A stretch of DNA of 64,000 nt from Nitrosopumilus sp. Lineage in GTDB: Archaea > Thermoproteota > Nitrososphaeria > Nitrososphaerales > Nitrosopumilaceae. The stretch is from NCBI GenBank assembly GCA_965207075.1, contig CBDBLO010000002.1, forward strand, positions 1,216,001-1,280,000, written 5' to 3'. Shown piece by piece: positions 1-62,442 of this stretch (its first letter is position 1; the number at the start of each line of letters is the position of its first letter). The notes under the pieces were generated by a model that saw only the letters and a program-made list of their open reading frames with translations, was not told the origin of the DNA and ran no database searches. The position numbers and the translations under genes are program-made.

Positions 1-125
1 AACACTGTGCGGGTGAACTCGGCTCCCAGCCGGGCTTCAAGGTATGATCCCATATACCTGAGCCCTGGCGGGTACATCTTGTGATGGGACATCTTGTAGC
101 TGTCGGTGTTGAGTATGGCGTTCAT
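1..125 (-). CDS. nadV: Nicotinamide phosphoribosyltransferase (NAMPT/NadV family), 5' part only
   Basis: Hand translation MNAILNTDSYKMSHHKMYPPGLRYMGSYLEAR matches NAMPT N-terminal TDSYKxxHxxxYP...SYxExR signature; runs off window; not in ORF track. Confidence 0.85.
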   Translation of the reverse strand, partial: MNAILNTDSYKMSHHKMYPPGLRYMGSYLEARLGAEFTRTV

Positions 126-193
126 TTTTGGTCGTTCCCCCACCGCTGCGGCTTCACGGTATCGTATCGCGGCATGCCGATAAAAGGCAAAGG

Positions 194-268
194 CGAACCC
201 GGCAGGACTCGAACCTGCGATCTGGCGCTCCGCGGGCGCCCGCACTCTCCGGGCTGTGCTACGGGTCC
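194..268 (-). tRNA. tRNA-Arg(GCG) with atypical C33
   Basis: Cloverleaf GGACCCG/CGGGTTC, GCAC/GTGC, GGCGC-CCGCGGA-GCGCC, GCAGG-TTCGAGT-CCTGC. Confidence 0.88.
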
Positions 269-269
269 A

Positions 270-1325
270 TCATGAATATTCAGTTCCACCACCCCTGACC
301 AAATATTTCGGGCTCACGCTCTTGAGCATCACCCGTCCCTGCATGTCCGACCGCTCCGGCACGGGCCGCACTACCACGCCCTCGCGTACGTGGTCCGCCC
401 CCGGTACGAGCGACGGGCCGGACGTATGTTCTTCCAGCGCCTCCAGTGAGAACGGGCCCTTGTAGGCCAACGGGGCATGTCTCAGCCTCAGGCCGCCTCG
501 GACCAGGTCTATGTCCGACTGCGTGACGTACGTGCCGTCGGACAGCATGACGTCAAAGACGGCCATGTCAAGATCAGTCCCGTAGTGCAGGTCCTGCACA
601 TCGCGGCCGTAGATCTCGCAGAACACGTGGACCGGCCCGTCGTCACCGTCCTTGCCGCGTGTTGCGCGCAGATCCTTGGTAATCGCGTACAGGTCGTGCG
701 CGTACCGTCCGGCCATCCGCGTGTAGATGTTGTCCACGCCGTCGGCAAACACGAGCTGGGATGCGGCCCACCCCTTGCTGGACACCGCTATGGAGTCGTA
801 CGGCCTGACCGCGCAGTAGCACAGCACGCCGTGCACCTTCTCGTGCATCGTGACGGGCTCGCCCTCCTGCAGCCTGCCGGGGTGGTTCTTGATGTTCTCA
901 ACGTCGTATGACGCGAGTTTGTCATTGCCGCCGTACCGCACGACCTTGCCCCTCATGTCCGTGGGTATGACCGGCTCGTACTTTGTCACTCCGAGCAGCT
1001 CCGTGCAGTCGGCCCCCTCCTTCCATTTCCACCCGTCGAGTTGTTTGCCGCTGTATATCAGCCCCTGGGAGAGCACGCCGCGCAGCCGCTGGGCGCTCAC
1101 GCGGTTGTGCTTCTTCCCGCCCAGCTTGCCGACCAGCCCCATCTCCTCCAGTATCGATTTGGGGACGATCGCCTGCTCCGGTATGTACGCGGCCAGGTCG
1201 CCCGTCTTGTACATGCCCTTGGGCACGACGCACTTGTACCCCATCACCACGGCAATCTCCAGCCTGTCGGCCTCGGGGTGCTTCTCGACCTGCAGCCTAT
1301 GCATCTCTACTGCAAAGCTGGCCAT
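270..1325 (-). CDS. RNA ligase, DRB0094 family (N-terminal tRNA-binding/OB-like domain + Rnl2-type nucleotidyltransferase)
   Basis: HPEADRLE...VVPKG..YIPE..RLRGVLSQGL N-domain; EKVHG motif I, EIYG, FDV, REGVVV, LKSVSPKYL. Confidence 0.9.
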   Translation of the reverse strand: MASFAVEMHRLQVEKHPEADRLEIAVVMGYKCVVPKGMYKTGDLAAYIPEQAIVPKSILEEMGLVGKLGGKKHNRVSAQRLRGVLSQGLIYSGKQLDGWKWKEGADCTELLGVTKYEPVIPTDMRGKVVRYGGNDKLASYDVENIKNHPGRLQEGEPVTMHEKVHGVLCYCAVRPYDSIAVSSKGWAASQLVFADGVDNIYTRMAGRYAHDLYAITKDLRATRGKDGDDGPVHVFCEIYGRDVQDLHYGTDLDMAVFDVMLSDGTYVTQSDIDLVRGGLRLRHAPLAYKGPFSLEALEEHTSGPSLVPGADHVREGVVVRPVPERSDMQGRVMLKSVSPKYLVRGGGTEYS

Positions 1326-1441
1326 CAGCTACCCGCCCCACCCACGGGTCCGAAATACGCGACGTAAAGCATGAACAACGCAAAGGCCACGAACATAACT
1401 ATGCATGCAACCGACAAGTTTGACCTCCCGCGGGCGGCCAT
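1325..1441 (-). CDS. 38-aa single-TM protein
   Basis: MAARGRSNLSVACIVMFVAFALFMLYVAYFGPVGGAGS; TAATG and TGATG overlaps on both sides. Confidence 0.55.
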   Translation of the reverse strand: MAARGRSNLSVACIVMFVAFALFMLYVAYFGPVGGAGS

Positions 1442-1584
1442 TACGGATTACCCCGAAACTCATCACAAGAGCAAGGCATGGTGACTCCCTCGCCGCAGTA
1501 TTCGGCCTTGATGGATACGGTGCACTCACCGCCGCCTATCTTATGATACTCGTAGCCGTGGCCGCAGTCGCAGAGCGGGGACAT
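1441..1584 (-). CDS. 47-aa Zn-finger microprotein (CxCGHxxxxH...CxCxxF)
   Basis: MSPLCDCGHGYEYHK...PCSCDEF; coupled by TAATG. Confidence 0.65.
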   Translation of the reverse strand: MSPLCDCGHGYEYHKIGGGECTVSIKAEYCGEGVTMPCSCDEFRGNP

Positions 1585-1740
1585 TAGGTTGGCACCTCCG
1601 CGCTTATTGGTGCCTCCCCGACTGGTTCAAAAAACGACGCCGGGTTGGGTTCGTCCTCCACCAGCAGTATGAGTACCATCAGCCCACCCACTCCTCTGCC
1701 GAACCGTATTTTCCCATAACATCACCAATATTATCATATC

Positions 1741-1763
1741 ATTTATAAATGTTAGGTTATTAT
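1741..1763 (-). promoter_or_regulatory. Archaeal promoter (TATA box TTTATAAA) identical to 17952-17974
   Basis: ATTTATAAATGTTAGGTTATTAT, AT-rich island ~25 nt upstream of an ATG on minus strand. Confidence 0.75.
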
Positions 1764-1880
1764 GCCCTGCGGTATTTCCAGCATACCCACGGGGCGGCGG
1801 TCTCGCTCATTGCACACACACAACGCGTTTGTACATAAGGCGCCGGCCTCCAGCGGACAGGCAGAATGACGCGTGTATGG

Positions 1881-2096
1881 TCATGGCGCGGACTTCTGCG
1901 GCCTTCGTATGATCCGCAGCCGCACGGCGCATTCCTCGCAGTAGATGTACTTTCGGATGCCCGGCCTAGAGTTCTTGCTCACCACGGCGGTCCCCGGAAA
2001 GCACTCCGCGCCGCACTGGCGGCAGTCCGTATGGTGTCCGAGACGGCGCCTGTTGCTGTACTTGGCCGTGTCCATGACAAAGCGCTTGGCGGGCAT
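1881..2096 (-). CDS. Zn-finger protein, CxxC...VS...CxECAVRL family
   Basis: CRQC...VVSK...YCEECAVRL; TGATG coupling. Confidence 0.7.
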   Translation of the reverse strand: MPAKRFVMDTAKYSNRRRLGHHTDCRQCGAECFPGTAVVSKNSRPGIRKYIYCEECAVRLRIIRRPQKSAP

Positions 2097-2347
2097 CAGG
2101 CGGCCGTCACCTCTGAAAGTTCGCACACGCCGAGCCGGACGGCGCACTCGGCGCAGTATCGCTTGCCGTTCAGGCGCCGGGGCTTGGAGACGGCGACGTC
2201 CCCGGGCGCGAACTCGCGGCGGCAGTTGCCGCATCCCGTATAGGGGGTGCGGCGTCCCGAGGCGTGCCCGCGCCTAGCGTCCGTCGCCTGCTGCCTGCGC
2301 CGGCGGCCGTCCTGCTGGTCCAGCCACTTCTGGCTGACGTGTATCAC
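2096..2347 (-). CDS. Zn-finger protein, CAVRL family
   Basis: PYTGCGNC..FAPGDVAVSK..YCAECAVRLG; GTGA overlap start. Confidence 0.7.
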   Translation of the reverse strand: MIHVSQKWLDQQDGRRRRQQATDARRGHASGRRTPYTGCGNCRREFAPGDVAVSKPRRLNGKRYCAECAVRLGVCELSEVTAA

Positions 2348-2625
2348 CGTGACCGGAGCCACGCGTCCACCTCCGAAGCGGTGCATATTCCAAGCCTCAC
2401 GGCGCATTCCACGCACCAGTGTTTGCGGTGCTTGCCGCTCGGCCTGCTCACGGCCAGGCTTCCCACGGACAGTTCCGTCCTGCATTCGCAGCACGCGGTA
2501 TACGGCGACTTGCGCCCGGCCGAGCGACTGCTCCGCATGGTGGCGTGGGCCTTGAGTTCCTTGTCCTGCAGGGTGCGCTGGTATGTCAGCCACCGGCGTT
2601 CTATGCGCATTATGAATGCCGGCAT
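2344..2625 (-). CDS. Zn-finger protein, CAVRL family
   Basis: PYTACCEC..VSR..WCVECAVRLGIC. Confidence 0.7.
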   Translation of the reverse strand: MPAFIMRIERRWLTYQRTLQDKELKAHATMRSSRSAGRKSPYTACCECRTELSVGSLAVSRPSGKHRKHWCVECAVRLGICTASEVDAWLRSR

Positions 2626-2894
2626 CAGGGGGGAGCCCCCTGCCTCGCCGCGTCCACAATGCGGCGGACCTCCTGCATGCTTTCCACGCGCCGCATGGAG
2701 AACGCGCCGGCGCGGTGCGGCTCGTAGAACGCGTGCTCGACGGCCGCCATCAGGGGCGTCCAGATGCCGGGAACCTGGACCGCCCTGTTGCGCGGCATCC
2801 CGGCGCAGCACTCCACGCAGTAGTAACGCTCGCCGGCTCCGTCGTAGTTGAGGACAAGCATGGTTATCGCGCCGGCGGCGTGGACGTCGCTCAT
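2625..2894 (-). CDS. CxxC...HAxxxPH putative Zn-binding protein
   Basis: YYCVEC...VEHAFYEPH; homologous to both halves of 8998-9630. Confidence 0.65.
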   Translation of the reverse strand: MSDVHAAGAITMLVLNYDGAGERYYCVECCAGMPRNRAVQVPGIWTPLMAAVEHAFYEPHRAGAFSMRRVESMQEVRRIVDAARQGAPP

Positions 2895-2895
2895 C

Positions 2896-3036
2896 TTACG
2901 CCGCCTCCCTGTACGTGCGGCACCCGCAGGAGGGGCAGCCGCCGGGCGCCACGCACGACCCGCGGCACGGGCACCGCAGGCACTTCCGCTCGCCCATGTA
3001 GTGGTCGTCCCTGGGGCAGCCGCACATGCAGGGCAT
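2896..3036 (-). CDS. 46-aa Cys-rich microprotein
   Basis: MPCMCGCPRDDHYMGERKCLRCPC...CPSCGCRTY. Confidence 0.6.
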   Translation of the reverse strand: MPCMCGCPRDDHYMGERKCLRCPCRGSCVAPGGCPSCGCRTYREAA

Positions 3037-3037
3037 G

Positions 3038-3424
3038 TCAGCACCCCTCCTCCCCCGGGCGGTGGGCCAGCGTGTCCACGTTGCGGATGATCGGGTTCCC
3101 AACACCGCGCTTCCCCAGTTCCTCCCGCGCTATATCGCATGACTCTGGAAGTATCTCCATGTGCTCGATGCGGGCCGCCGTCTCGGGCGTGATGATCCCG
3201 GCGTCCATGCCGCGCGTGGTGAAGTTGGCCTCGCCCGCGAACGGGTCGATGATGTGGACGCGCTCCCCGTTGAGGCCATCGGCAACGCCGAACTCGGTCT
3301 TCAGGATGTGGTCTACGGAGTTCTCGATAAAGTCGATGAGCTCGGGCGGGGTGAACACCTGCACCTTTTTCTTGTCTTGGCGGGCCTTTGCGACGTCCTC
3401 GTCCGTGAGGGGCTTGTCCGTCAT
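3038..3424 (-). CDS. Truncated adenine-MTase-like protein (SAM-binding half, Type ISP R-M-like), no NPPY motif
   Basis: VFTPPELIDFIENSVDHILKTEFG..GL...VHIIDPFAG resembles Type ISP MTase motifs X and I; ends before motif IV. Confidence 0.7.
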   Translation of the reverse strand: MTDKPLTDEDVAKARQDKKKVQVFTPPELIDFIENSVDHILKTEFGVADGLNGERVHIIDPFAGEANFTTRGMDAGIITPETAARIEHMEILPESCDIAREELGKRGVGNPIIRNVDTLAHRPGEEGC

Positions 3425-4002
3425 GTCAACACCTGCTGCCCTGCACCCCGGTTCTTCTGGGCGATCTCCTCCAGTATCTTTGTCCGCTTGGCCTCTATTA
3501 GCTCGCGTTCATGCTTGATTGCGTTATTGGTCATGCCCATGCGCGGCTCCCCCATGGCGGCGCTGCGGCGTTCGATTGCAGTCTTCTCGGCGTGGCATGG
3601 CTTGCACATCAGTTGCAGGCGTTCCTTGGCAAGGTCGGGGTTGCGTAGGTAGTACCTCACTATCGAATTAGAGTTTCCGATGGCCTTGCGGTCTACGGAG
3701 CCGTCCGACCTGATGTGGTCTAAATGTAGGTTGGACGTGACATGGCACACGACGCAGGAGCCGCCGAGCAGCTTGAGGATGTCGCGGCGCATGGCATAGT
3801 ACATCTTGCTCTTTGAATCCGCGTCGCATTTCTTGCACCACGTCTTAAGCCCGTGCGAGTTGACCTTGCTCTTGCTGAAGTGGTCGTAGGACAGGGTCAG
3901 CCCGCACTTCTTGCAGATGCGCATCTTGTTCTTGTCCAAAAGCTGCCTTTGGCGGCGCTTTAGATCCAGACTGCGAATTGCAATCTCGTCAAGCTCGCTC
4001 AT
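3421..4002 (-). CDS. HNH endonuclease with N-terminal Zn finger
   Basis: CKKC..F...GLKTWCKKC; LGGSCVVC..LHLDHI..DG...LQLMCKPCHAEKT. Confidence 0.82.
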   Translation of the reverse strand: MSELDEIAIRSLDLKRRQRQLLDKNKMRICKKCGLTLSYDHFSKSKVNSHGLKTWCKKCDADSKSKMYYAMRRDILKLLGGSCVVCHVTSNLHLDHIRSDGSVDRKAIGNSNSIVRYYLRNPDLAKERLQLMCKPCHAEKTAIERRSAAMGEPRMGMTNNAIKHERELIEAKRTKILEEIAQKNRGAGQQVLT

Positions 4003-4523
4003 TTGGCGGCCTCCTGTTTTCTGCGTCGCATGATTGTAAGCCTTGCCCATCGACAGTCGTTGCACAGTATTTTGAGGTGCTTGACGGCCTGCTCCGGGCG
4101 CTTGAGATAGTACGCGTACCGCATCGAGGGGAACGTTGGAACGTCGGGGTTGTGTACGACCTGCGTGACATAGGCGCGACTGCTGTCTTTTATGGCGGTC
4201 TTGCAGATGTGGCATGTCGTGCCGCCTAACAGCGACAGGATTCCGGCGCGTACGCTGGAGTTGTGCCTGTGGGATTCCGCGCTGTGGCATTTCCGGCAGA
4301 TGTGCTGCAGCCCGTCTGCCGTGCGGCAGTGGCGCGCGAACTTCTCGCGGGGCAGTGGCTTTCTGCATCTAAAGCACATCTTCAGGTTGTTGGCGGCGGC
4401 CTGCCTCTTGATCAGTGTGGCCAGCTTTACCTGCAGTTCTAGTTCCCGCTGATTGATCGCGTCAAGTTCCTCCTGCGTGGTGATGTATCCGGGAGTCGGC
4501 TTTTTCTCACGGTTGGTGTGCAT
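3999..4523 (-). CDS. Degenerate HNH paralog of 3421-4002
   Basis: Same architecture (CFRC..DGLQHICRKC; LLGGTTCHIC; YYLKRPE..LKILCNDC) without DH and final His. Confidence 0.7.
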   Translation of the reverse strand: MHTNREKKPTPGYITTQEELDAINQRELELQVKLATLIKRQAAANNLKMCFRCRKPLPREKFARHCRTADGLQHICRKCHSAESHRHNSSVRAGILSLLGGTTCHICKTAIKDSSRAYVTQVVHNPDVPTFPSMRYAYYLKRPEQAVKHLKILCNDCRWARLTIMRRRKQEAAK

Positions 4524-4894
4524 TACGACATGTCCCTCCTCGGCTGGTATGACATGCATCCGCAGGACGACACCATGCAACGGCGCGTGCGCTCCATCGG
4601 CTTTGTCTGCTCGTGGGCGTCGGACGGGTGGCGGCACCCGCGGCATGTCGAGTCGTTGGCCGCCACGTTGCGGATTGCCTGCGCGCGTCTCTGCATTTTT
4701 TCGGCGATGTACATGGCTTTGCAGTCGCATATCATGCAGCCCTTTTGGTGGGAGGTTGCGGGGTGGCCGCACCCGTCGCATGTGACGCGTTCTGCCGCAG
4801 AAGGTATGGCGCGCTGGCGGTACTTTACGCGCTTCCTCATGCCTATGGCATTGAGGTGTCCTGTCTTCGGGTGGACGTCAGACCAGCGGGGCAT
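4523..4894 (-). CDS. Protein with two CxxCxHxxxxH...CxC fingers
   Basis: CDGCGHPATSH..CDC and CRGCRHPSDAH..CGC. Confidence 0.7.
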   Translation of the reverse strand: MPRWSDVHPKTGHLNAIGMRKRVKYRQRAIPSAAERVTCDGCGHPATSHQKGCMICDCKAMYIAEKMQRRAQAIRNVAANDSTCRGCRHPSDAHEQTKPMERTRRCMVSSCGCMSYQPRRDMS

Positions 4895-5085
4895 TATCCT
4901 GTTGACACCTCCGGCATCCTGACCGGTCCCTGCCTTTTTTGAGCCTCCCACAGCAGGCACGTGCATATGACAAAGTCGCCCGCCTCGTTGGTGTCTATGT
5001 GGGTGCACCGCGGGCCTGCCTTGCCGAAATGCAAATGGATGCGTTCAAGGTGGCCGCAGCCGCGGCAGAACTTTTCGTCGATCAG
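4894..5085 (-). CDS. CxxCxHxxxxH...CxC microprotein, probable near-cognate (CTG) start
   Basis: CRGCGHLERIH...CTCLLW; CTGA overlap with upstream stop. Confidence 0.6.
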   Translation of the reverse strand: MIDEKFCRGCGHLERIHLHFGKAGPRCTHIDTNEAGDFVICTCLLWEAQKRQGPVRMPEVSTG

Positions 5086-5567
5086 CCGGATCCTCCCCCC
5101 CGCTGCATGTGCTGCTCGAGCATCCCCCTGTACTCCCACGCCTTCTCCTGCATGGCACCGGGCCACGGCCAGTTGCCGCCGTCTGCTATGAGCTCAAGCG
5201 AGCCGCACTTTACGGAGCCGTCGGGCTGCCTGCCGAACGGCATCAGGCGGATGTCCAGCAGGTCGGCGTCCTTGCACCGTTCGCGGGCGGCCTTTACGGC
5301 GTCCCCGTTGATGTCGGCGCCGTATATCTCGACGCGTGCGGCGCCCCGGTCGCGGGCTTGGCGCATGCCCTCTGCCAGCAGTATGCCGGAGCCGCAGGCG
5401 GGATCGAATATGCGGACGCGCCTGCCCCTGTGGTCCTCGGCCCCAAACGTCATCCCCACGAGCAGCGTCGCCGCGGCGGAGGACGTATAGTAGGAGGCGG
5501 CCTCCTTGCGGTGCTCACTGTCACCGGTTTCGGGGTCGTACTTGACTGGCCTTTTTTCGTTTGTCAT
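5082..5567 (-). CDS. Truncated adenine-MTase-like protein (SAM-binding half), no NPPF/Y motif
   Basis: YYT (motif X), IFDPACGSGILL (motif I), IYGADIN (motif II), GSLELI; ends before motif IV. Confidence 0.75.
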   Translation of the reverse strand: MTNEKRPVKYDPETGDSEHRKEAASYYTSSAAATLLVGMTFGAEDHRGRRVRIFDPACGSGILLAEGMRQARDRGAARVEIYGADINGDAVKAARERCKDADLLDIRLMPFGRQPDGSVKCGSLELIADGGNWPWPGAMQEKAWEYRGMLEQHMQRGGGSG

Positions 5568-5821
5568 TTCTTCACACGCCTCCGGGTGTCATTCCGGCTG
5601 CCCGACCGGGCGTAGCGGCCCTGGTGGTCGGTGCGCGGCATGACTGCCTGCGCGGTCTGGGTGGGCATCTGCGACGCGTCCTCCCCGGGCATGTCCATCG
5701 GGCGGCCGCACTCGACGCACTCCATGTTGGACGTCCAGCCCGTGCCGCCGTCGCCGGTGTCGCCGAACGTCTCGTAGTATACGGTGCCGCCGCACTTGGG
5801 GCACACTGGGGGCTTGGTCAA
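5564..5821 (-). CDS. Zn-ribbon protein
   Basis: CPKCGG...CVECG. Confidence 0.65.
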   Translation of the reverse strand: MTKPPVCPKCGGTVYYETFGDTGDGGTGWTSNMECVECGRPMDMPGEDASQMPTQTAQAVMPRTDHQGRYARSGSRNDTRRRVKK

Positions 5822-6024
5822 CCCGCGGCCTCCTTCAGCATTTGCGACACGCTCTTGTGGTACGTGCGTATCCTGAGCTGCTTGCCGCAGCAGGGGCAGT
5901 GCCTGCCATCCCAGTCAGTCTGCATGTCACATGGGCGGCAAACCTTGGTTGCGCCGCGCCTGCGCTGGCCTCCTTCCATCAGCGTGCCGAGCGAGTATCT
6001 GTCGCATTTGCCGCGGCATGCCAT
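5818..6024 (-). CDS. Small Zn-finger protein (CxGxC...CxxC..WDG.xCPCCGxxLR)
   Basis: MACRGKC...CRPC..WDGRHCPCCGKQLR; pattern familiar from thaumarchaeal small proteins. Confidence 0.7.
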   Translation of the reverse strand: MACRGKCDRYSLGTLMEGGQRRRGATKVCRPCDMQTDWDGRHCPCCGKQLRIRTYHKSVSQMLKEAAG

Positions 6025-6683
6025 CAGTCCCGCACCAACCTGTTCTTGCGCGCGTGTCTGTTGTTGCCGACCGTCCCCCTTGCGCGGCGGGCGGCTATTG
6101 CGCGGTGTCCCATGCCGGTTGACGGCGCGGCGGCGTCGCAGCCCGTGCGGCGGCACGTTCCAAGGAGGCGGTAACATCTTTGGCAGTACGACCCCGGTTC
6201 CTGCTCCGCGCGGCGGCGCATCTCGGCCACTCCGCCGTCGCTGACCCCAAGGCCGCGGGCGGTGCGCCGCGATACTGTGCGCTGCGACCTGACCTTGCCT
6301 ACGGTGACATGCTCGCGGGCGGCATGCACCTGCAACCGCTCCCTTGTTTGTTCGTCCTCGGGACGGGCGGAGTATATCTCGCAGGCCAGGTGCTCGGGGG
6401 CCACGCACGTGGTGTTGCGGCACGATCTCGTTATGGTGGCGCCGGCGGGGGGCGCGTGTCCGCGCCACGCCCTGAACAAGTGCGGCAGTATGCCGACGCG
6501 CTTGCCGCCGATCTTGGCCTCCGGCTGTCCCTTCTTGGACTTGCCCGTCCAGGGGCGGCAGCCGTTCTTGTCGGCCGCGCCAATCGCTCCGCGCCGCAGC
6601 ATGTCGCACGCCCGTTCGCGTACAGCGGCGGTCGCGGGATCACCGGCGGCCTCGGCCAGCCTGCCGTAGGTCAGGGGTGGCAC
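6024..6683 (-). CDS. Degenerate HNH_3-like homing endonuclease domain protein
   Basis: GCRPWTG...TRSCRNTTCVAPEHL versus canonical CWxWxG...HxCxNxxCVNPxHL. Confidence 0.65.
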   Translation of the reverse strand: MPPLTYGRLAEAAGDPATAAVRERACDMLRRGAIGAADKNGCRPWTGKSKKGQPEAKIGGKRVGILPHLFRAWRGHAPPAGATITRSCRNTTCVAPEHLACEIYSARPEDEQTRERLQVHAAREHVTVGKVRSQRTVSRRTARGLGVSDGGVAEMRRRAEQEPGSYCQRCYRLLGTCRRTGCDAAAPSTGMGHRAIAARRARGTVGNNRHARKNRLVRD

Positions 6684-6747
6684 CCCCCGCCGTCAGGGCC
6701 GTGGACGCCGGCGCCATGGCCGCAGCCGGCGTACGCAGAGTCCCGAC

Positions 6748-7080
6748 TCACTGTGGTGCGGCCTCCTCTACTGCGTTCCCGTATACCGCGCGGGACTTGC
6801 GCGTCGCAAGCACCGCGTCGATGTCGGCCTGCGTGCAGATGCCCAGGCGGACGGCGCACGTGCCGCACCGGTACACGCGGTTCCTGCCCGACCGGCTCAC
6901 GTAGGTGTCGCCCAGTTCAAACTTGTGGCTGCAGTGGTTGCACGAGTCCCACGGGGCGGCGCGCACGTGCCCGCCGGTATGCGGCATGGTCTCGCGCTGC
7001 CTCTCGTGTTCGCGCTGCGTGGGTTGCTGCCGCGCAAGCCACAGCCTCGTGACGAGCCTGACCCGGAAGGAGGACGTCAT
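6748..7080 (-). CDS. Zn-finger protein, CAVRL family
   Basis: CNHC.HKFELGDTYVSR...CGTCAVRLGIC. Confidence 0.7.
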   Translation of the reverse strand: MTSSFRVRLVTRLWLARQQPTQREHERQRETMPHTGGHVRAAPWDSCNHCSHKFELGDTYVSRSGRNRVYRCGTCAVRLGICTQADIDAVLATRKSRAVYGNAVEEAAPQ

Positions 7081-7358
7081 GGGCCGGCCTCCGCAGTGGG
7101 GGTGTCGGGGACGGGCTCGATGTCCCTCCTGCGCGCGCCGCAATCAAGGCAGGCAAGGCCGCCAGCGCCGCTGTCGAGGTACCAGCGGTGCCCCCCGGGG
7201 CGTTGGCCGCAGGCCTCGACGGCCTTTTCGGTGGCGGTCTTCCAAGGGGGCGCCTCGGAGGGTGGAGGGGACTGCTCGCTGGCGGGCATGTGGCAGACGG
7301 TGCACACATCTTGGCCGAGCAGATCGCTGTACTGGTTTTTGTGTACTATGCACCTCAA
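7077..7358 (-). CDS. Cys/His-rich hypothetical protein
   Basis: CTVCH, HRW..CLDCG; coupled overlaps. Confidence 0.6.
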   Translation of the reverse strand: MRCIVHKNQYSDLLGQDVCTVCHMPASEQSPPPSEAPPWKTATEKAVEACGQRPGGHRWYLDSGAGGLACLDCGARRRDIEPVPDTPTAEAGP

Positions 7359-7756: not shown

Positions 7757-7773
7757 CCGATTCACTCCTTTCC

Positions 7774-8226: not shown

Positions 8227-8453
8227 CTCCTGTGGCCCGGGCCCGGGTCCGCAATCCCCGCCCCGACGCGGGCCAGTTTTTCCCTCGTGTACGCGTCGGC
8301 GACATGCTCCTCCATGGTGGCAAAGGAGTTGCCGGCGTACTGGCAGGCGCCGCATTTGTAGATGTGGGTGGATTCCAACCCGCATACGGTGATCAGTCCG
8401 TACAGGTCTTGCCCAGTCGACACGGGCGTGTAATGCGGGGACGGCCGGTCCAT
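8223..8453 (-). CDS. C2H2-like Zn-finger microprotein
   Basis: YKCGACQY...MEEHV. Confidence 0.6.
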   Translation of the reverse strand: MDRPSPHYTPVSTGQDLYGLITVCGLESTHIYKCGACQYAGNSFATMEEHVADAYTREKLARVGAGIADPGPGHRR

Positions 8454-52296: not shown

Positions 52297-52298
52297 AC

Positions 52299-52592: not shown

Positions 52593-52617
52593 GCCCGGCT
52601 GCATCCTGCCCCCTCTG

Positions 52618-53484: not shown

Positions 53485-53489
53485 GGCGC

Positions 53490-53912: not shown

Positions 53913-53916
53913 GCAG

Positions 53917-56486: not shown

Positions 56487-56552
56487 AAAAGCAGGATTCG
56501 CGGCGGTTTTTAAGGCGGCCGCGGCTTAAATCAGACCCGCCGCCCGCATGTC

Positions 56553-56990
56553 ATGAGCCCGTGGTATCACCCCCGATTCTACCACGTGTGGCTGCCGGGC
56601 GACAGGGCCAAGGAAATCCTCGACGAGCTGGCCGACAGGAGGGCCGACAAGGGGCGCCGCAAGGTCGTATACCTGGAGACTCGGGGCAGCAAGCTGGCCG
56701 CCGTGATCGAGTGCGACATGGGTTATACGCCGCGCGCCTGGCGGCGGCTGCGCAAAGGCTTCTGCCTGGGGTACCTGTGCCGCCCCGCCTCCGAGCGCCG
56801 CGACGTCATGCGGTACGCCTGCCTGCTTGCAGAGGAGGGGCGCATGCCGTGGGAGGTCGCCGGTCCCGCCCGGCTGATGCCCGAACTGAGGCGGGAGCGC
56901 GCCGCGGTAATGCACGAGCGCGCGGAGCACCTGCGCACCGCGCGGGACGACGGATGGGACATAGACGTGCCGGAGGCCGTTCTGCCATGA
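56553..56990 (+). CDS. Hypothetical protein
   Basis: TTAAAT ~22 nt upstream; ATGA coupling to next gene. Confidence 0.6.
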   Translation: MSPWYHPRFYHVWLPGDRAKEILDELADRRADKGRRKVVYLETRGSKLAAVIECDMGYTPRAWRRLRKGFCLGYLCRPASERRDVMRYACLLAEEGRMPWEVAGPARLMPELRRERAAVMHERAEHLRTARDDGWDIDVPEAVLP

Positions 56991-57379
56991 CGCCCTCGTG
57001 CGAAGAGTACGCCCCCCGGTGGGCCGGACTGCTGCAGTCCGCAGTCAACATCCGCGACGATCTGGGCGTGATGCCGACCGTCCGCCACCTGTGGCTCGCA
57101 GGACTGGCCTCGGACTGGCTGACGTCGCCGGTAACGGAGATACTGGGCCGCCAGCTGTGGCCCGCCCGCGTGCGCGGCAGGGACGTCCCGGCATACCTGT
57201 CGTTTGACTGGTGGTCCATGGGGAAGAGGTTCGCCGACACCGTGCGGGAGAAGCGGTACATCGGCGCGGCCGGGGTGCTCGACAGGTTTGCCGAAGGGCT
57301 GAACGACGGCGTGGTGGCGGCGGAGCGCGGAGAGATCGTGAAGGCCTTGGCAGACGGCGGCAGGACGGCCGTCAGTTAG
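56987..57379 (+). CDS. Hypothetical protein
   Basis: ATGA overlap start. Confidence 0.6.
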   Translation: MTPSCEEYAPRWAGLLQSAVNIRDDLGVMPTVRHLWLAGLASDWLTSPVTEILGRQLWPARVRGRDVPAYLSFDWWSMGKRFADTVREKRYIGAAGVLDRFAEGLNDGVVAAERGEIVKALADGGRTAVS

Positions 57380-57416
57380 TACCGGCGCCTGCCGGACTGC
57401 CCGGGCGGCTTGCTGG

Positions 57417-57508
57417 TAGGTAGATTAATCGGTAATGTAGACTAATAGGTAGACTGCCGCAAAGCCGGCAATAGGTAAAGTCAGCAGATAGGTAAATTGA
57501 TAGGTTAG
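57417..57508 (+). repeat. Five direct TAGGTA(G/A)A-like repeats between convergent genes
   Basis: 57417, 57446, 57472, 57489, 57501. Confidence 0.7.
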
Positions 57509-57864
57509 GCGCCGTCCTCGCCGACATACCATCCGGCGAGCGGCTGCCGCATGGCGTGCTCCCAGTCCGCAAGCGGCACGACCCAGCCCGGCACGGTGCT
57601 CCGGCCGTCATCCAGCCGTTCGTCGTACACGTCGGCAGCACGAGCCCCCGGCGACTTTCTGCAGAGTCCCGTGATCGTCTTGTTGACCGCGTCGCGCACG
57701 TCCGCCGGCAGCCCCGCCCGCATGTATGACGAATATGTCCGCGGGACCTCAACGTACGTGGTCCCGCGCAGAGTGGCGCAGCGGAAGTTCGGAGCCACGT
57801 CGGAGAGGCGCATCTGGCGGCGGCCCGGTTTGTATTGCGGCGTCGGTTCCTTTGGCATGCCCAA
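57505..57864 (-). CDS. Hypothetical protein
   Basis: 119-aa ORF with plausible composition. Confidence 0.5.
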   Translation of the reverse strand: MGMPKEPTPQYKPGRRQMRLSDVAPNFRCATLRGTTYVEVPRTYSSYMRAGLPADVRDAVNKTITGLCRKSPGARAADVYDERLDDGRSTVPGWVVPLADWEHAMRQPLAGWYVGEDGA

Positions 57865-57986
57865 CCGGCGCGTCAGTCTAATAAGTACGGATCCCGTTTG
57901 GCCGTGGCCGGGAAACCTGCCGGCCGGCCGTCAGGCCCTTGTGTCATGCGCGCGCCTGTCGGCCACCTTGTGCGTCGGCGCCCGCG

Positions 57987-58139
57987 TTATTTTTTGCCTC
58001 CGAAAAGGTGCGCGCGCAGTATGTAGTTCGCCTCGCCCGAGTTCGACCTGCCATGTTCATCTGCCCGCCTGTCGAGCTCCTCGAAGACGTCATCTTCCAG
58101 CGAGAAACTGTGGACATTCTTGGTCTTGCCCTTTGCCAT
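57987..58139 (-). CDS. Ribbon-helix-helix (Arc/FitA-like) DNA-binding protein, 50 aa
   Basis: HSFSLEDDVFEELDRRADEHGRSNSGEANYILR; not in ORF track; AT-rich promoter at 58160-58187. Confidence 0.8.
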   Translation of the reverse strand: MAKGKTKNVHSFSLEDDVFEELDRRADEHGRSNSGEANYILRAHLFGGKK

Positions 58140-58237
58140 GCACCACGTACGGACTGGTACTATTTATTTCTAATAATTCCTAATAGCTATCCCGTTCCTG
58201 CCGCGCGGCGGACTGGCCGGAGTTAAAAGATTCCCGC

Positions 58238-59536
58238 ATGGTTTACAGCATGACCGCGCTGCAGACCATATACACGGGCGATGTCATGGAACAGATCGCC
58301 CGCATCCCCGACTGTTCCGTGGACGTGGTCTTCACGTCGCCTCCGTACTTTGCGCTGCGCGACTACGACACGAAGGAGCAATGGGGGCTTGAACCGACCA
58401 TCCGCGAGTACCTGGACAAGCTGATGTCCCTGATGCGCGAGTGCCGCCGCGTGCTCAAGCCGGCGGGTAACATCTGGGTCAACCTGGGGGACACGTACGC
58501 GACGAGCGCCAAGTACGGGGTGCGGCGCAAGTCCCTCATGGGCATACCGGAGCGGTTTTTTGTCCGCGCGATAGACGACGGTTTTGCCTGCCGGAACAAG
58601 GACGTCTGGCAGAAGGCCAACCCCACCCCGTCGTCGGCCTGGGACCGCCTCACCAACACCTACGAGCCGGTGTTCTTCTTCTCCATATCGGACGCGTATT
58701 TCTTCGACCTGACGCCGGTCCGCGTCGAGGCCAAGACCGAGGCCCGCCCGTTCAACATCCGGGTGAGGGAGGCGCGAAAGCCGGGGGCGAGGCAGGCCAA
58801 ACTGATCCCGGAGCTGTCCCCGGAGGAGGACGCGCAGTACGACCGGCAGGGCGTGCGCAGGAGCGGAAGGCGCGCAAACAACCCCGCCCTCAACAACCGC
58901 AACTTCAAGGAGATCAAGGAGAAGTACGGCTACCTGCCCGGGTCCAACACCGCCAGGCTGCACCGCGCCAGGCCGGGCAACCCCAACCACGTGTGCAAGA
59001 GTTCCGGCTGTCTGCGCAACACCGGCAGCGTCAGAAAGCACGATGGCGTGCTGGGCGGGTACCTCGCCGACCCCATCCCCATGGCCGGCGGGCGCCCCCG
59101 CGGAAAGAATCCCGGCGACATCGTGTCGCTGCCGCACCAGCCCCTCAAGTACGATCACTTTGCAGCGTTCCCCGTGGGGCTCCCGCTCCACTTCCTGCCG
59201 GCCGCGTGCCCGCGCTGGGTCTGCAGGGAGTGCGGGCGGCCGAGGATGCCGCGCGACGGGCTGGACACGCATTCCGGGGGGCGCACCGTGTACAGGTGCA
59301 CCGTGTACACGCCGCTGTGCAAGTGCGGCGCCGGCTGGGAGCCCGGCATCGTACTGGACCCGTTTGCCGGCGCGGGCACCACCATGGTGGCGGCCAAGCG
59401 GCTGGGCTTCCGCTACTGCGGCATCGAGATCAACCCAAAGTACGTCCGCACAATCAGGCGCCGGCTGGCCGAGACCGAGGAGCCGCCGCCCATACCGCCG
59501 CCGGCGCCGTCGCGCGACGCCGAAGGGGAGCGGTAG
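58238..59536 (+). CDS. DNA amino-methyltransferase (N4-C/N6-A, beta class)
   Basis: GD, FTSPPY, RVLK..G.IWVNLGD, HFAAFP, VLDPFAGAGTT, GIEIN. Confidence 0.92.
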   Translation: MVYSMTALQTIYTGDVMEQIARIPDCSVDVVFTSPPYFALRDYDTKEQWGLEPTIREYLDKLMSLMRECRRVLKPAGNIWVNLGDTYATSAKYGVRRKSLMGIPERFFVRAIDDGFACRNKDVWQKANPTPSSAWDRLTNTYEPVFFFSISDAYFFDLTPVRVEAKTEARPFNIRVREARKPGARQAKLIPELSPEEDAQYDRQGVRRSGRRANNPALNNRNFKEIKEKYGYLPGSNTARLHRARPGNPNHVCKSSGCLRNTGSVRKHDGVLGGYLADPIPMAGGRPRGKNPGDIVSLPHQPLKYDHFAAFPVGLPLHFLPAACPRWVCRECGRPRMPRDGLDTHSGGRTVYRCTVYTPLCKCGAGWEPGIVLDPFAGAGTTMVAAKRLGFRYCGIEINPKYVRTIRRRLAETEEPPPIPPPAPSRDAEGER

Positions 59537-60657: not shown

Positions 60658-61022
60658 AGCCCTGTATACTGTGCGGACTGCCGACGGGCCGCGAGTGGAC
60701 TCCACCGCACGCGCCGGGACACCGCGTCGCGCTCTGCATCGCCTGCCACAAGCAAATCTCGGCGGCCGCCAACACCTGCGGTGTCGTCCTTCCGGACAAC
60801 TACGACGGACCCATCGGCATCGACGACCGTAACAAGTGCGTCATGTGCAACAAGGAGGCGGAGGGGCTGATATACCGGTGCAAGTGCTCCGAACACTGCT
60901 GCATTCGCCTCTGCATGAACTGCAGAAACAACCGGATGCACATCCACAACAAGATCGGGCACTTCATCAAACACTACGATGTCGAGGGGGACGGTCGCGG
61001 ACTGCCGGAGAGGGTGGAGTAA
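60654..61022 (+). CDS. Double Zn-finger protein
   Basis: CILC..LCIACH; CVMC..LCMNC. Confidence 0.65.
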   Translation: MKPCILCGLPTGREWTPPHAPGHRVALCIACHKQISAAANTCGVVLPDNYDGPIGIDDRNKCVMCNKEAEGLIYRCKCSEHCCIRLCMNCRNNRMHIHNKIGHFIKHYDVEGDGRGLPERVE

Positions 61023-61178
61023 ATGTCAAAGCACGCCGACATCCCGGCCAACAGAATCAAGTGCGCGGTCTGCCAGCACGAGAGCCGGAGCCACCACCCT
61101 GGAGGCTGCTGGGAACAGGGCTGCAACTGCCGCGGGTTCAAATCGCCCCTACGGACGCTGGAGGAGGCGACGGAATGA
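61023..61178 (+). CDS. CxxCxHxxxxH...CxCxxF microprotein
   Basis: CAVCQHESRSH..GCNCRGF. Confidence 0.7.
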   Translation: MSKHADIPANRIKCAVCQHESRSHHPGGCWEQGCNCRGFKSPLRTLEEATE

Positions 61179-61480
61179 CGCGCGGCCTCATCGTCCTCCA
61201 TCCTTACGCCACACAAATCATCACCGGCGACAAGACGGAGGAGTACCGTGACCGCCCGCCGCCCCCAGGGGTCATAGGCTCGACCATCTACCTGCTGTCA
61301 GGCGGATACGCCCTCGGCAGGATCAAGATCACGTGGGCGGAGCCCGGCATCTGGCACGTCCGCGTCGTGGAAAGGTTCGATACCCCGCGCAAGTACGAGC
61401 ACCCGAATGGCGCCCAGGTGTGGGTGCGGGACGTGCGGTTCGACCCGCAGCCCACGCTCGACGGGAGGAATGCATCGTGA
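61175..61480 (+). CDS. ASCH-domain protein
   Basis: L....PYA..I..GDKTEEYR; G.IW-like C-terminus. Confidence 0.85.
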   Translation: MTRGLIVLHPYATQIITGDKTEEYRDRPPPPGVIGSTIYLLSGGYALGRIKITWAEPGIWHVRVVERFDTPRKYEHPNGAQVWVRDVRFDPQPTLDGRNAS

Positions 61481-61596
61481 ACTGCAACAACTGCGATGCC
61501 GAGGGCACTGCTGAGAATGTCTGCCCCATGTGCAACGAGTCGTTCTGCGACGACTGCGAGCATTCCCACGGGTGCGACTTGGAGGACTACTGGTGA
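61477..61596 (+). CDS. AN1/B-box-like Zn peptide
   Basis: CNNC..CPMC..FCDDC.H.H.C. Confidence 0.65.
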   Translation: MNCNNCDAEGTAENVCPMCNESFCDDCEHSHGCDLEDYW

Positions 61597-61748
61597 TGGC
61601 GCCCGGCAAGAGGCGCGGCCTCGTCAGCTGCGATGCCTGCGGCAGGCGCATCAAACCTAACCCCGAAAGGACCAGCGGACCGGGCTCAGCCTACCCGGAC
61701 AAATACTATTGCTCTCCGTGCTGGAAGTACTGGGAGGAGGGTGACTGA
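61596..61748 (+). CDS. Zn-finger microprotein
   Basis: CDACGRRI...YYCSPC. Confidence 0.65.
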   Translation: MAPGKRRGLVSCDACGRRIKPNPERTSGPGSAYPDKYYCSPCWKYWEEGD

Positions 61749-61891
61749 TGCCCGCCCCGGATACCATCCCCTGCCTCTCCTGCGGCCACTCCCAGGACGG
61801 CCACGAGAAACCACGGAGCTGCACGAGCCTGACTCCATGTAAGACCGCCGGCTGCTTCTGCACGCGGTACAAAGGGGGACGGGCTGGCTGA
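61748..61891 (+). CDS. CxxCxHxxxxH...CxC microprotein
   Basis: CLSCGHSQDGH...GCFCTRY. Confidence 0.7.
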   Translation: MPAPDTIPCLSCGHSQDGHEKPRSCTSLTPCKTAGCFCTRYKGGRAG

Positions 61892-62442
61892 CCGACAGCA
61901 ACAGGACCCGCCGGAAGCGCGGGTACGAATACGAGAAGAGTCTGGCGCTCCGGCTCAACAAGGTACCCGGGTGCCGCGCCTACAGGTTGGGCGGGACGCA
62001 GGTGGAACTGCCCGACGTGCTGTGCGTCAACAATATCACGGGTGAGATGGCCGCCATCGAGTGCAAGACCGGCGGCAACGGCCGGCTGTACGTACCGCGC
62101 GATCAAATAGAGAGATGCCGCAGCTGGACCGACGCTCTGCGGGCGTACGGCCGCCGGCACGTCATAGTCGCGTTCAGGTTCCACTCAAAGCGCGGGCGCG
62201 GGAAGACCAGGCGCGATGTAAGGGAGTACCTCTTCCAGTTGCACGACGAAGTCACGCGCGACGTGCGCTGCTCCTATGACGGCACGTTATACATGCGCGA
62301 CTGCGACGGAAATGAGGGCGACTGCGGCTGGACTGTGATATGCTCCCCCGCGGGGGCCGTACAACTGGCGCTGGCCGACAGGGTGCCCGCCCCTGGCGCG
62401 GGGGGGCTGGCCATGTGCGAATCCGCCCCGCCTGTACGCTAG
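61888..62442 (+). CDS. hjc: Archaeal Holliday junction resolvase (Hjc-type PD-(D/E)xK), probable CTG start
   Basis: RKRGYEYE, LPDV, AIECKT; the conserved N-terminus lies upstream of the ORF-track start. Confidence 0.82.
   Translation: MTDSNRTRRKRGYEYEKSLALRLNKVPGCRAYRLGGTQVELPDVLCVNNITGEMAAIECKTGGNGRLYVPRDQIERCRSWTDALRAYGRRHVIVAFRFHSKRGRGKTRRDVREYLFQLHDEVTRDVRCSYDGTLYMRDCDGNEGDCGWTVICSPAGAVQLALADRVPAPGAGGLAMCESAPPVR

Follow-up and report, generated by a model that had tools for sequence, protein, structure and literature searches.

The stretch of DNA analysed here, called the window below, is 64,000 nucleotides long and comes from a Nitrosopumilus genome (G000; assembly GCA_965207075.1), where it spans positions 1216001-1280000 of the large contig (CBDBLO010000002.1, here C2). 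The window is almost certainly the right part of one integrated mobile element, an island of 150,897 bp from core to core (C2:1127771-1278677), and this island is probably an integrative and conjugative element (ICE) of the thaumarchaeal type, working as outlined below. It is a new, extreme member of the kind described in 2019 and not a new class. Its unusual points are its size, five tRNAs of its own, a phage-style cargo of nucleotide, NAD and RNA-repair genes, and the presence of at least two sister ICEs in the same genome. The original prediction, made from the letters of the window, had assigned it to an unusual hybrid class mixing conjugation machinery with the cargo of large viruses. That class was not borne out, since the gene set is the one given for thaumarchaeal ICEs in the passages on these elements in Krupovic et al. 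2019 (PMC6563490) and no capsid or terminase was found with the models searched. The predicted minimum size of 62 kb held, the element being in fact 151 kb long.

The window covers the right 62.7 kb of the island, whose left end lies 88.2 kb beyond the first base of the window. The host genome measures 2.23 Mb in two contigs, with 60% GC and a completeness of 95.4%. It encodes an archaeal AmoA (387 bits), and the nearest public records are titled as metagenome-assembled genomes (MAGs) of Thaumarchaeota, Nitrosopumilaceae or Nitrosopumilus; hence the host is an ammonia oxidiser, as had been supposed.

The island is a single precise insertion. Its ends were read from four close relatives (G059-G062), which were reached through the loci of a homolog search and whose flanks are 97-100% identical in protein and 88-98% identical in DNA. 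The alignment of the left flank to these relatives stops at C2:1127780 and that of the right flank begins at C2:1278668, in each case at a 10-bp core, CTATTGGATT, that marks the two attachment (att) sites. The sites and the host genes to their right are as follows.

C2:1127771-1127780, outside the window: attL core CTATTGGATT, from the flank alignments of the four close relatives
Window 62668-62677 (C2:1278668-1278677): attR core CTATTGGATT, right boundary of the island, from the same alignments
Window 62886-63617, plus strand: HAD hydrolase of the host flank (Pfam Hydrolase_3, 106.5 bits)
Up to window 64000, plus strand: start of a conserved 669-aa gene of the host flank (from ortholog order in relatives)

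The core occurs exactly twice in the genome, once per junction, and a genome-wide search for this 10-mer found no internal copy within the island. In G060 and G061 the two flank alignments overlap on a single copy of the core, and the same single core is present in G059 and G062, so the site is uninterrupted in all four close relatives. The integration site is the intergenic spacer between a DRG-type GTPase gene (C2:1126618-1127739) and the HAD-hydrolase gene. Among ten complete or near-complete genomes of the same genus, sampled around conserved markers, these two flanking genes are adjacent in nine, and they are 151 kb apart in G000; the ortholog of the 669-aa gene follows that of the HAD gene in eight of the ten. 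These results supported the predicted integration beside the HAD-hydrolase locus and moved its right end, which had been put at 62442, to the att core at 62668-62677. The name argS, given earlier to the 669-aa gene, was unconfirmed, as a phmmer search of the PDB with a 119-aa fragment gave no match. For integrated elements of Thaumarchaeota, PMC6563490 gives att lengths down to 8 bp and an intergenic position in 15 of 68 cases; the 10-bp intergenic att of this island is therefore within the known range.

Two earlier attempts at the ends were rejected. A search for att repeats of at least 14 bp between the presumed ends returned only chance-level 14-16-mers, the true core of 10 bp being revealed by the close relatives. 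The flank markers chosen first are 78-390 kb apart in genus members and were therefore of no use for defining the island; the adjacent DRG-GTPase/HAD pair was. The same spacer holds about 0.9 kb of AT-rich extra DNA in G033 (locus L034), about 1 kb in G018 and 1.9-2.5 kb in G006, G010 and G050, and because of these longer spacers it appears to take up extra DNA in several species. In the left flank, outside the island, the gap that precedes the DRG-GTPase gene carries a tandem repeat (C2:1125250-1125960). Its 60-bp unit is present in 7.7 near-perfect copies (99% matches), and a less well conserved continuation (period 180, 86% matches) reaches about C2:1125960. This repeat is also present in G062 and is probably a repetitive coding region.

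The junctions were also found in public sequencing runs. In each of five runs, which come from two studies, at least 94% of the words sampled from the attR region are present. Contigs bridging attR, that is, the integrated junction, are present in two of these runs (X1 and X4). In both, another contig matches the window from 62668 rightwards and is preceded by 20 letters equal to the chromosome left of attL; because of these 20 letters, an empty-site junction coexists with the integrated form in both runs. The empty-site contigs reflect either excision of the island or co-occurring island-free close strains, between which the data cannot separate. The island was probably recently mobile. Contig depths on the island side and on the right flank were 336-348 and 391 in X1, 773-956 and 2026 in X4, and 14.7 and 30.3 in X5; these values are neither copy numbers nor cell shares, and no evidence was drawn from them. 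Runs labelled as sponge or marine metagenome hold only a 0.10-0.24 share of the junction stretch, and the contigs of X6 (0.24) cover only 62675-63733. Within the island, close to its right end (window 62476-62540), about 40-65 bp are common to other, unrelated contigs in X1, X4 and X5, with loose ends on both sides; they form a short dispersed repeat.

Open reading frames (ORFs) were called with an ad hoc codon-score caller trained on long ORFs of the genome, on which all ORF counts depend. Its calls number 92 for the window, of which 89 belong to the island, and 217 for the whole island. Pfam scans took in 90 proteins, with about 130 island ORFs outside these scans, and 34 of the 60 window proteins scanned had no family. 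The genes that identify the island as an ICE are listed below, with scores given against curated cut-offs.

Left end of the island, outside the window: tyrosine-recombinase-like ORF, 433 aa (PF00589, 22.3 bits; cut-off 27.1)
C2:1147414-1151442, left part of the island: VirD4/TraG-like coupling protein, 1342 aa (TrwB_AAD_bind 38 bits, cut-off 20.5; TraG-D_C 32.3, cut-off 22; T4SS-DNA_transf 22.1, cut-off 20.1)
C2:1155013-1156752, left part: TrbL/VirB6-like candidate, 579 aa, with about 6-7 hydrophobic segments
Left part: TadC/UpsF-like platform protein (T2SSF, 50.2 bits, cut-off 25.2; UpsF/BasF-like by NCBIfam)
Left part: PrimPol-D5-type primase-helicase (Pfam)
Window 28887-29633, minus strand: A24-type prepilin peptidase-like membrane protein (Peptidase_A24, E 4e-4, 21.2 bits, cut-off 26.5)
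Window 29611-30210, minus strand: conserved 199-aa core protein beside the peptidase-like gene
Window 30207-31739, minus strand: ParB-like candidate, 510 aa (26 of 30 ESM Atlas feature matches to ParB_N clusters, score 0.92, a lead only)
Window 33436-34293, minus strand: TFB/TFIIB-like transcription factor (weak Pfam Zn_Ribbon_TF match)
Window 44451-48209, plus strand: 1252-aa conserved core protein with an N-terminal anchor (paralogs 38-39% identical in both sister clusters)
Window 48268-49965, plus strand: secretion ATPase of the FlaI/TadA/VirB11 superfamily (T2SSE, 63.8 bits, cut-off 24.9)
Window 52618-54375, minus strand: four pilin-like genes (N-terminal hydrophobic segments; paralogs in sister clusters)
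Window 54372-56486, minus strand: VirB4/TrbE-like conjugation ATPase (AAA_10, 40.5 bits, cut-off 27.5)

The only integrase-like gene inside the island is the 433-aa ORF. A profile of this ORF and four of its five paralogs matches the XerA structure 4a8e_A (E 1.6e-4), and all five paralogs adjoin tRNA genes; at the level of profiles, the ORF is thus predicted to be a tyrosine-recombinase integrase. The original prediction had proposed annotating the left flank for, among others, an integrase and a replicative helicase, and the integrase-like gene, the coupling protein and the PrimPol-helicase are there. The best NCBIfam matches of the VirB4-like protein are VirB4-like conjugal ATPases, all under their cut-offs, and its best matches in a plasmid database are DUF87/TraC proteins of Sulfolobus conjugative plasmids (22-24% identity, E 1e-24 to 1e-27). 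The T2SSE ATPase scores 203 bits with the NCBIfam FlaI model, under its cut-off, and is FlaI/BasE/TadA-like. Paralogs in sister clusters of the same genome are 66% identical for VirB4 and 66-73% for this ATPase. The peptidase-like and pilin-like genes are conserved in all three clusters, and the A24 peptidase-like and 199-aa proteins are 37-48% identical in both sister clusters; the pilin-like ORF at 53917-54375 gave a weak Pilin_N match (20.3 bits, cut-off 25.2). The 579-aa VirB6 candidate had no Pfam, PHROG or NCBIfam match, and its ESM Atlas feature matches to TrbL/VirB6 clusters (score 0.89-0.91, 190-196 shared features) are a lead only.

The AlphaFold2 model of the TFB-like protein (pLDDT 58.7) has an N-terminal ribbon and 10 helices, and its Foldseek matches at ranks 1-26 are all TFIIB, Brf or TFB entries, the best being 7nvu_M (E 5.7e-4) with a TM score of only about 0.2. 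In both sister clusters the ParB candidate follows the TFB-like gene immediately, and in the island 1.7 kb separate the two. No Pfam or PDB match was obtained for it, and its AlphaFold2 model was unusable (pLDDT 33.7). For the 510-aa, 1252-aa and TFB-like proteins, single-sequence phmmer searches against the PDB returned no useful match, and two alignment profiles yielded nothing either. The 1252-aa protein, a possible surface or mating protein by prediction, had no Pfam, PHROG or PDB match and only 8 homologs at E of at most 1e-5, all unnamed or "hypothetical", among them ones of 93%, 79% and 59% identity. Of the genes named by the original prediction, VirB4, the TadA-type ATPase, the tRNAs, the RNA ligase, the ribonucleotide reductase, Tmk and the DNA methyltransferase were confirmed by Pfam, NCBIfam or Rfam scores. 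Four pilin-like ORFs and a peptidase-like gene are present as announced, with Pilin_N and Peptidase_A24 matches that are weak and under cut-off. The Hjc call stood at the borderline, and that of a TFB through a weak Zn-ribbon match and TFIIB matches at the fold level.

VirB4, VirD4, TadC, a FlaI-type ATPase, a prepilin peptidase, pilins and a TFIIB beside a ParB-like gene form, together with a tyrosine integrase and VirB6, the set described in PMC6563490 for thaumarchaeal ICEs, of which NitEve-E6, NCAV2-E1/E2 and NitIsl-E3 are examples; because the island carries this set, some members of it as candidates, we read it as an ICE. According to the same source, these elements have a median size of 64 kb and reach 140 kb, some encode a PrimPol-S3H replication protein, a relaxase is lacking and most of the cargo has no assigned function; Abby et al. 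2018 (PMC5797428) is a further source for such elements. The island resembles them in its short site-specific att, its gene set (with the VirB6, peptidase, pilin, TFB and ParB members as candidates), its PrimPol helicase, its large size and the fact that no relaxase was found. It differs in being larger, at 150.9 kb, than the largest size reported there, and in gene order: the TFB-like and ParB-like genes are 1.7 kb apart and the core genes are dispersed. The five tRNAs and the NrdJ, Tmk, DHODH, NAMPT and RNA ligase genes are a further difference, the term "ribonucleotide reductase" having 0 occurrences in the main text of PMC6563490, whose supplements may list such cargo. A literature search found no other description of thaumarchaeal elements with such tRNA and nucleotide cargo, and published supplements may list similar cargo.

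Conjugative plasmids of the Sulfolobales (pNOB8, pKEF9 and the pING family) likewise encode VirB4 and VirD4 and no relaxase, and the VirB4-like protein has its best matches there. They differ in size (20-42 kb), and the identity of their VirB4 to that of the island is only 22-24%. We know of no type-IV-pilus module, tRNAs or nucleotide-metabolism genes on these plasmids.

A domesticated chromosomal system for DNA exchange, like Ced/Ted of the Crenarchaeota, or a patchwork of host genes and small islands would also place conjugation-like genes in a chromosome. The genome has three copies of the VirB4/pilus cluster, similar clusters exist in several related MAGs, and, as in Ced/Ted, an archaeal VirB4-like ATPase goes with a pilus and a polytopic VirB6-like membrane protein (a candidate in the island). 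As the relevant passages of Beltran et al. 2023 (PMC9905601) describe them, however, Ced/Ted systems are chromosomal, without integrases, and import cellular DNA, whereas the island genes sit, together with an integrase, att sites and a coupling protein, on inserted DNA that relatives lack. A weak CedB match speaks for such a system, but at 31.5 bits against a cut-off of 700 it is negligible, and the island pilins look like type IV pilins by sequence and not VirB2-like as in Ced/Ted. A patchwork is contradicted by the whole 151 kb being missing, to the base, from all four close relatives, by the patchy distribution of VirB4 homologs (4 of 18 genomes of the genus), and by separate chromosomal copies of nrdJ, tmk and hjc. 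These copies bear on the original prediction, under which sole and syntenic copies would have meant host DNA; the island copies lie inside DNA that the relatives lack. We consider a domesticated system or a patchwork barely credible.

From the gene content, we propose that the ICE would function as follows. The left-end tyrosine recombinase would recombine the two cores and excise a circle, which the PrimPol-D5 helicase would replicate. Cell contact would be made by a type-IV-pilus-like module consisting of the FlaI/TadA-like ATPase, the TadC/UpsF-like platform, the A24 peptidase and the four pilins, and the DNA would be moved by the VirB4-like ATPase, the VirD4-like coupling protein and the TrbL/VirB6-like membrane protein. 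The element's own TFB-like factor and ParB-like protein may drive its transcription and partition, and ArdC and the methylases may protect the incoming DNA. The remaining roughly 190 genes would be cargo: defence genes, five tRNAs, NrdJ, Tmk, DHODH, NAMPT, the RNA ligase, HMG-CoA reductase and unidirectional arrays of small Cys-rich ORFs. In this scheme, we infer transfer and excision as well as the ParB, VirB6, pilin and peptidase assignments.

Several points weigh against this reading of the island. The Pfam scores of the prepilin peptidase, the pilins and the integrase are under curated cut-offs, the Hjc-like gene only barely clears its own, and the ParB and VirB6 assignments are language-model leads only. 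No relaxase family was matched among the 90 Pfam-scanned proteins, with about 130 island ORFs unscanned and oriT not sought; archaeal conjugative plasmids are also without relaxase in the account of PMC6563490. A co-resident strain that lacks the island, and not excision, may be the origin of the empty-site contigs, and no attP-type loose end, excision circle or transfer was seen among the matches listed, which is no evidence of absence. Whereas the sister elements are compact, the conjugation genes of the island have cargo dispersed between them, a layout that could mean decay or nested insertions. Since about 130 ORFs are unscanned and 34 of the 60 scanned are without a family, a divergent capsid or packaging gene is possible. 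The ad hoc gene calls are a caveat to all counts.

The sister elements bear on whether the island is one element or several. For about 26 island genes, two other regions of C2, at about 710-762 kb and 1718-1784 kb, carry paralogs in conserved order. The shared core consists of the coupling protein, a 1141-aa protein, TadC, the VirB6 candidate, the TFB-like and ParB-like proteins, the A24 peptidase, the 1252-aa protein, the FlaI-type ATPase, VirB4 and the pilins. The sister ICE-C (C2:1717811-1784195) is 66.4 kb long, close to the median of 64 kb cited above from PMC6563490, and carries the conjugation core in compact order; its integrase adjoins tRNA-Leu(CAA), and a 15-bp direct repeat of the tRNA 3' end is present at both of its ends. 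A region of about 50 kb (ICE-B, C2 at about 710-762 kb) holds a third copy of the core, with the coupling protein, the 1141-aa protein, TadC, the TFB/ParB-like genes, VirB4 and pilins, and clusters like it were seen in the relatives' loci L009, L011 and L012. In the island, the core genes are spread over the whole 151 kb, with cargo between and not beside them. The genes relevant to this question are listed below.

C2:1214731-1216125, of which window 1-125, minus strand: NAMPT, with its first 41 codons in the window (for the portion beyond the left edge of the window, NAPRTase 160 bits and NAMPT_N 56 bits)
Window 192-268, minus strand: tRNA-Arg(GCG) (ARAGORN; Rfam 54 bits, gathering score 29)
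Window 270-1325, minus strand: ATP-dependent RNA ligase of the DRB0094 type (TIGR02306, 191 bits, cut-off 151; Pfam RNA_ligase and PHA02142 OB domain)
Window 26616-27890, plus strand: J-domain protein (Pfam DnaJ, 42.5 bits)
Window 39476-40111, plus strand: Tmk, island copy (Pfam, 87.2 bits, cut-off 27)
Window 40130-40200, minus strand: tRNA-Met(CAT) (ARAGORN; Rfam 50 bits, gathering score 29)
Window 40912-43680, minus strand: class II (B12-dependent) NrdJ with ATP-cone (NrdJ_Z, 698 bits, cut-off 400; Pfam)
Window 62002-62442, plus strand: Hjc-like resolvase, last gene of the island (Pfam, 21.4 bits, cut-off 21.1)
Left part of the island: tight tRNA-His/Thr/Cys cluster (ARAGORN and Rfam)
Left part: ResIII/DEAD helicase, HMG-CoA reductase, ThiF, PfkB, DHODH, DUF5131 and HAD hydrolase (Pfam)

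It is unlikely that the island is a composite, that is, an ICE backbone of about 65 kb inflated by nested unrelated elements, such as a plasmid or virus remnant, that brought in the tRNAs, NAMPT, RNA ligase, NrdJ/Tmk and micro-ORFs. Such a history would fit the fact that ICE-C accommodates the same core in 66.4 kb, and a provirus nested in an ICE is documented in Nitrososphaera in PMC6563490. A block of tmk, tRNA-Met, a 68-aa ORF and nrdJ separates two core genes that are direct neighbours in both sister clusters, and the stretch with HMG-CoA reductase, NAMPT, tRNA-Arg, RNA ligase and most micro-ORFs, about 27 kb in G000, is only about 7 kb in G059. There, a 24-kb contig runs from TadC (84% identity) and the 1141-aa protein (71%) through ArdC, a nuclease and a reshuffled subset of the small ORFs (77-88% amino acid identity) to Mrr, the nucleotidyltransferase (96%) and the methyltransferase, without HMG-CoA reductase, NAMPT, tRNA-Arg or RNA ligase. 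Island-type NrdJ was not found in five related genomes (G059-G063, searched with the island query; four of the five are draft MAGs). Against a composite, however, stand the single integrase-like gene, the missing internal att core, the lack of a capsid or terminase among the models searched, and the interleaving in G059 of small ORFs from different island parts beside core genes, which looks like cassette shuffling and not like one nested unit.

Because there is a single integrase-like gene and no internal core, and because the core genes have paralogs in both compact sisters, we read the island as one ICE lineage that may have been accreting and shuffling cargo cassettes. The 24-kb contig of G059 also speaks for one element, as small ORFs, Mrr, a nucleotidyltransferase and a methyltransferase share it with TadC and the 1141-aa core gene. 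A second contig of G059 is collinear with window 44451-59536 at 65-91% amino acid identity. G061 and G062 have nothing of window 1-20000 except their own tRNA-Arg, and their only VirB4 matches are sister-type copies of 63-66% identity. Related sequences lie elsewhere. What looks like one or two decayed ICEs is at C2 about 1912-1952 kb, where an integrase paralog (57%) beside tRNA-Lys(TTT) is accompanied by two more paralogs of the coupling protein and by a VirB4 fragment interrupted by three stop codons (1929494-1929706). Another 57% integrase paralog lies beside tRNA-Lys(CTT) at C2:2129341. In the Nitrosopumilus chromosome OZ244033.1 (locus L014, 33% GC), a stretch at about 8784-10300 is 68% identical over 400 aa to the island coupling protein and a 100-aa piece is 67% identical to VirB4; the locus may represent a piece of an ICE from this family in a host of quite another kind, and the identity is surprisingly high across a GC gap of 30 points.

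All five island tRNAs score over the Rfam threshold. They are only 55-76% identical to chromosomal isoacceptors and are therefore not recent duplicates. The tRNA-Arg(GCG) is a second copy of its isoacceptor, identical at 58 of 77 positions to the chromosomal one at C2:1034468, and the island tRNA-Met matches the chromosomal tRNA-Met at 41 of 75 positions. Among high-scoring genes, usage per 1000 codons in island and host was 31.4 and 21.3 for CGC, 24.8 and 20.5 for His, and 13.8 and 9.5 for Cys; ACG and ATG usage did not differ. Three of the five tRNAs (for Arg-CGC, His and Cys) thus read codons used 1.2-1.5 times more in island genes, a match that is suggestive. Four "tRNA-???" calls by ARAGORN at C2:712737-713009 were discarded, as they are a 12-bp tandem repeat and no tRNAs.

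NAMPT and the RNA ligase have no paralog in the genome. The NAMPT gene is real, as predicted, with only its first 41 codons in the window and the rest to the left. The best phage-database matches of the RNA ligase are jumbo phages (280-484 kb) at 31-34% identity. The other cargo enzymes have chromosomal counterparts: NrdJ at C2:394223-396883 (58% identical to the island copy), tmk at C2:79344-79922 (41%), an Hjc-like gene at C2:1363069-1363371 (42%) and a J-domain gene at C2:149822-150937 (28%), so that the island Tmk, Hjc and J-domain proteins are only 28-42% identical to their paralogs. In a tree of 31 sequences, the island NrdJ is sister to all 24 sampled chromosomal NrdJ of the genus, including that of G000 (SH-aLRT 100), on a terminal branch of 1.46 against a median of 0.05 and with a deviant composition. 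The tree fits an old capture from the host lineage, as had been predicted, followed by fast evolution, with a placement that is unsure owing to possible long-branch effects. The small contig of the assembly (C1, 45.9 kb) is a mosaic of sequences with 80-97% identity to C2:33-72 kb, among them a second tmk and tRNA-Arg(TCG), and probably represents the haplotype of a variant strain. A 1.68-kb element on this contig, which looks like an insertion sequence, recurs at 99.5% identity at C2:237255 and C2:773577.

tRNAs and genes for nucleotide, NAD and RNA-repair functions are usually read as signs of large viruses. The island cargo has the same functional flavour as the auxiliary sets of jumbo phages (tRNAs, ribonucleotide reductase, Tmk, NAMPT and RNA ligase), with tRNAs divergent from those of the host. 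Its ORFs are also small and densely coupled: the median length is 124 aa in the island and 247 aa in the rest of the genome, and of the neighbouring pairs on one strand, 60 of 168 in the island and 149 of 1107 elsewhere overlap or abut. This upheld the micro-ORF style described by the original prediction; its figure of about 70 microproteins did not hold, since 32 of the 89 island ORFs in the window are below 100 aa and 53 below 150 aa. Together with the lack of a known family for most ORFs, these features would suit a giant provirus or virus-plasmid hybrid that has too-divergent capsid and packaging genes and uses the pilus and VirB4 for entry, exit or superinfection. We regard such a provirus as very improbable. 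The Pfam models PF05065 (Phage_capsid), PF03237 (Terminase_6N) and PF03354 (TerL_ATPase) gave 0 matches in the whole genome and were positive in control genomes, portal and double-jelly-roll models being outside this search. PHROG gave no match for the 10 largest family-less island proteins, and IMG/VR scans with the PrimPol-helicase and a 263-aa ORF of the small-ORF array, which find only close relatives, returned none. The published ICE gene set is present in full if the candidate genes are counted, with the coupling protein and ArdC. Unlike in jumbo phages, the vehicle is a conjugative element, and its cargo gives it a virus-like look without making it a virus.

Between the NAMPT end of the window and its core genes lie the small-ORF array, the Mrr-like gene and a cargo block (19953-25710), which, with the remaining features of the island, are the following.

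Window 1728-1763, repeated at 17939-17974 (89% identical): AT-rich 36-nt element (repeat search)
Window 1881-19147, minus strand: array of about 40 small ORFs (g005-g044), all on this strand and many start/stop-coupled
Window 5082-5567, minus strand: N6-methyltransferase-like ORF, 161 aa, within this array, which also has Zn-ribbon ORFs
Window 19205-19843, minus strand: Mrr-like type IV restriction endonuclease with an N-terminal membrane segment (Mrr_cat, 112.8 bits; PADLOC mREase_IV / ZorD nuclease domain)
Window 19953-20861 (plus), 21103-22035 (plus) and 24772-25710 (minus): three paralogous nucleotidyltransferases (Pfam; paralogy; PADLOC PDC-S09-like nucleotidyltransferase)
Window 22089-22793, minus strand: S-adenosylmethionine (SAM) methyltransferase (Pfam)
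Window 22931-23449, plus strand: ArsR-type helix-turn-helix protein (Pfam)
Window 23442-24569, minus strand: 375-aa protein, secreted or anchored, without a family
Window 34534-35307, plus strand: protein with an AbrB/MazE-type DNA-binding domain (MazE_antitoxin, 25.2 bits), within a 72% GC stretch
Window 36303-38782, plus strand: two membrane-anchored core proteins of 267 aa and 505 aa, each with one N-terminal hydrophobic segment and paralogs in both sister clusters
Window 50068-51363, minus strand: membrane-anchored SNase-domain nuclease (SNase, 27.7 bits; N-terminal hydrophobic segment)
Window 51499-52592, plus strand: two conserved core proteins of 265 aa (3 hydrophobic segments) and 97 aa (paralogy, hydrophobicity)
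Window 58238-59536, plus strand: type II N4/N6 DNA methyltransferase (Pfam 120.7 bits; PADLOC MTase_II 193 bits)
Window 61175-61480, plus strand: ASCH-domain ORF (Pfam)
Left part of the island: Eco57I-like methylase, NucS-like nuclease, second N4/N6 methylase and PD-(D/E)XK nuclease (Pfam)
Left part: ArdC-like anti-restriction domain, ArdC_N (Pfam)

In the small-ORF array, 17 of the 22 ORFs scanned with Pfam had no family. Low-coding-score ORFs of the whole island are Cys-rich (41 Cys codons per 1000 against 9.5 in host genes), with several weak Zn-ribbon-like matches, and some of them may be miscalls. A TATA-like motif is present in the 36-nt repeat, whose copies lie upstream of two operon-like arrays of minus-strand ORFs. 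The repeat may act as a promoter common to both arrays, perhaps recognised by the TFB that the element encodes. No family was found for the 267-aa and 505-aa core proteins. The SNase-domain nuclease has a 66% identical ortholog in a related element (locus L007).

Nucleotide, NAD and RNA-repair genes and tRNAs can thus ride on an archaeal conjugative element, which matters for the automated classification of "viral" contigs in metagenomes. A further idea, which we put forward tentatively and regard as doubtful, is that the island is a "jumbo ICE" and that convergence has given this archaeal conjugative element the kit for self-sufficiency known from jumbo phages. If so, the tRNAs, NrdJ, Tmk, DHODH, NAMPT and the nick-sealing RNA ligase would supply nucleotides and NAD and repair or supplement tRNAs on entry into a new cell, and the unidirectional Cys-rich micro-ORF arrays beside ArdC could be an anti-defence arsenal, by analogy with the leading regions of bacterial plasmids. 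A bolder version, in which hidden capsid genes make the island a true virus-ICE hybrid, is much less likely, with only a slim chance of being right.

To our knowledge, conjugation has never been demonstrated in ammonia-oxidising archaea, and their ICEs are known from genome comparison only. The island is an unusually clean test case, with base-exact att sites, empty sites in sister genomes, both forms in the same runs, intact-looking core genes and at least two sister elements. Together, as one ICE family, this island (ICE-A, 150.9 kb), ICE-C (66.4 kb) and the ICE-B region of about 50 kb make up about 12% of the 2.2-Mb genome, a notable mobile load for a small archaeal genome.

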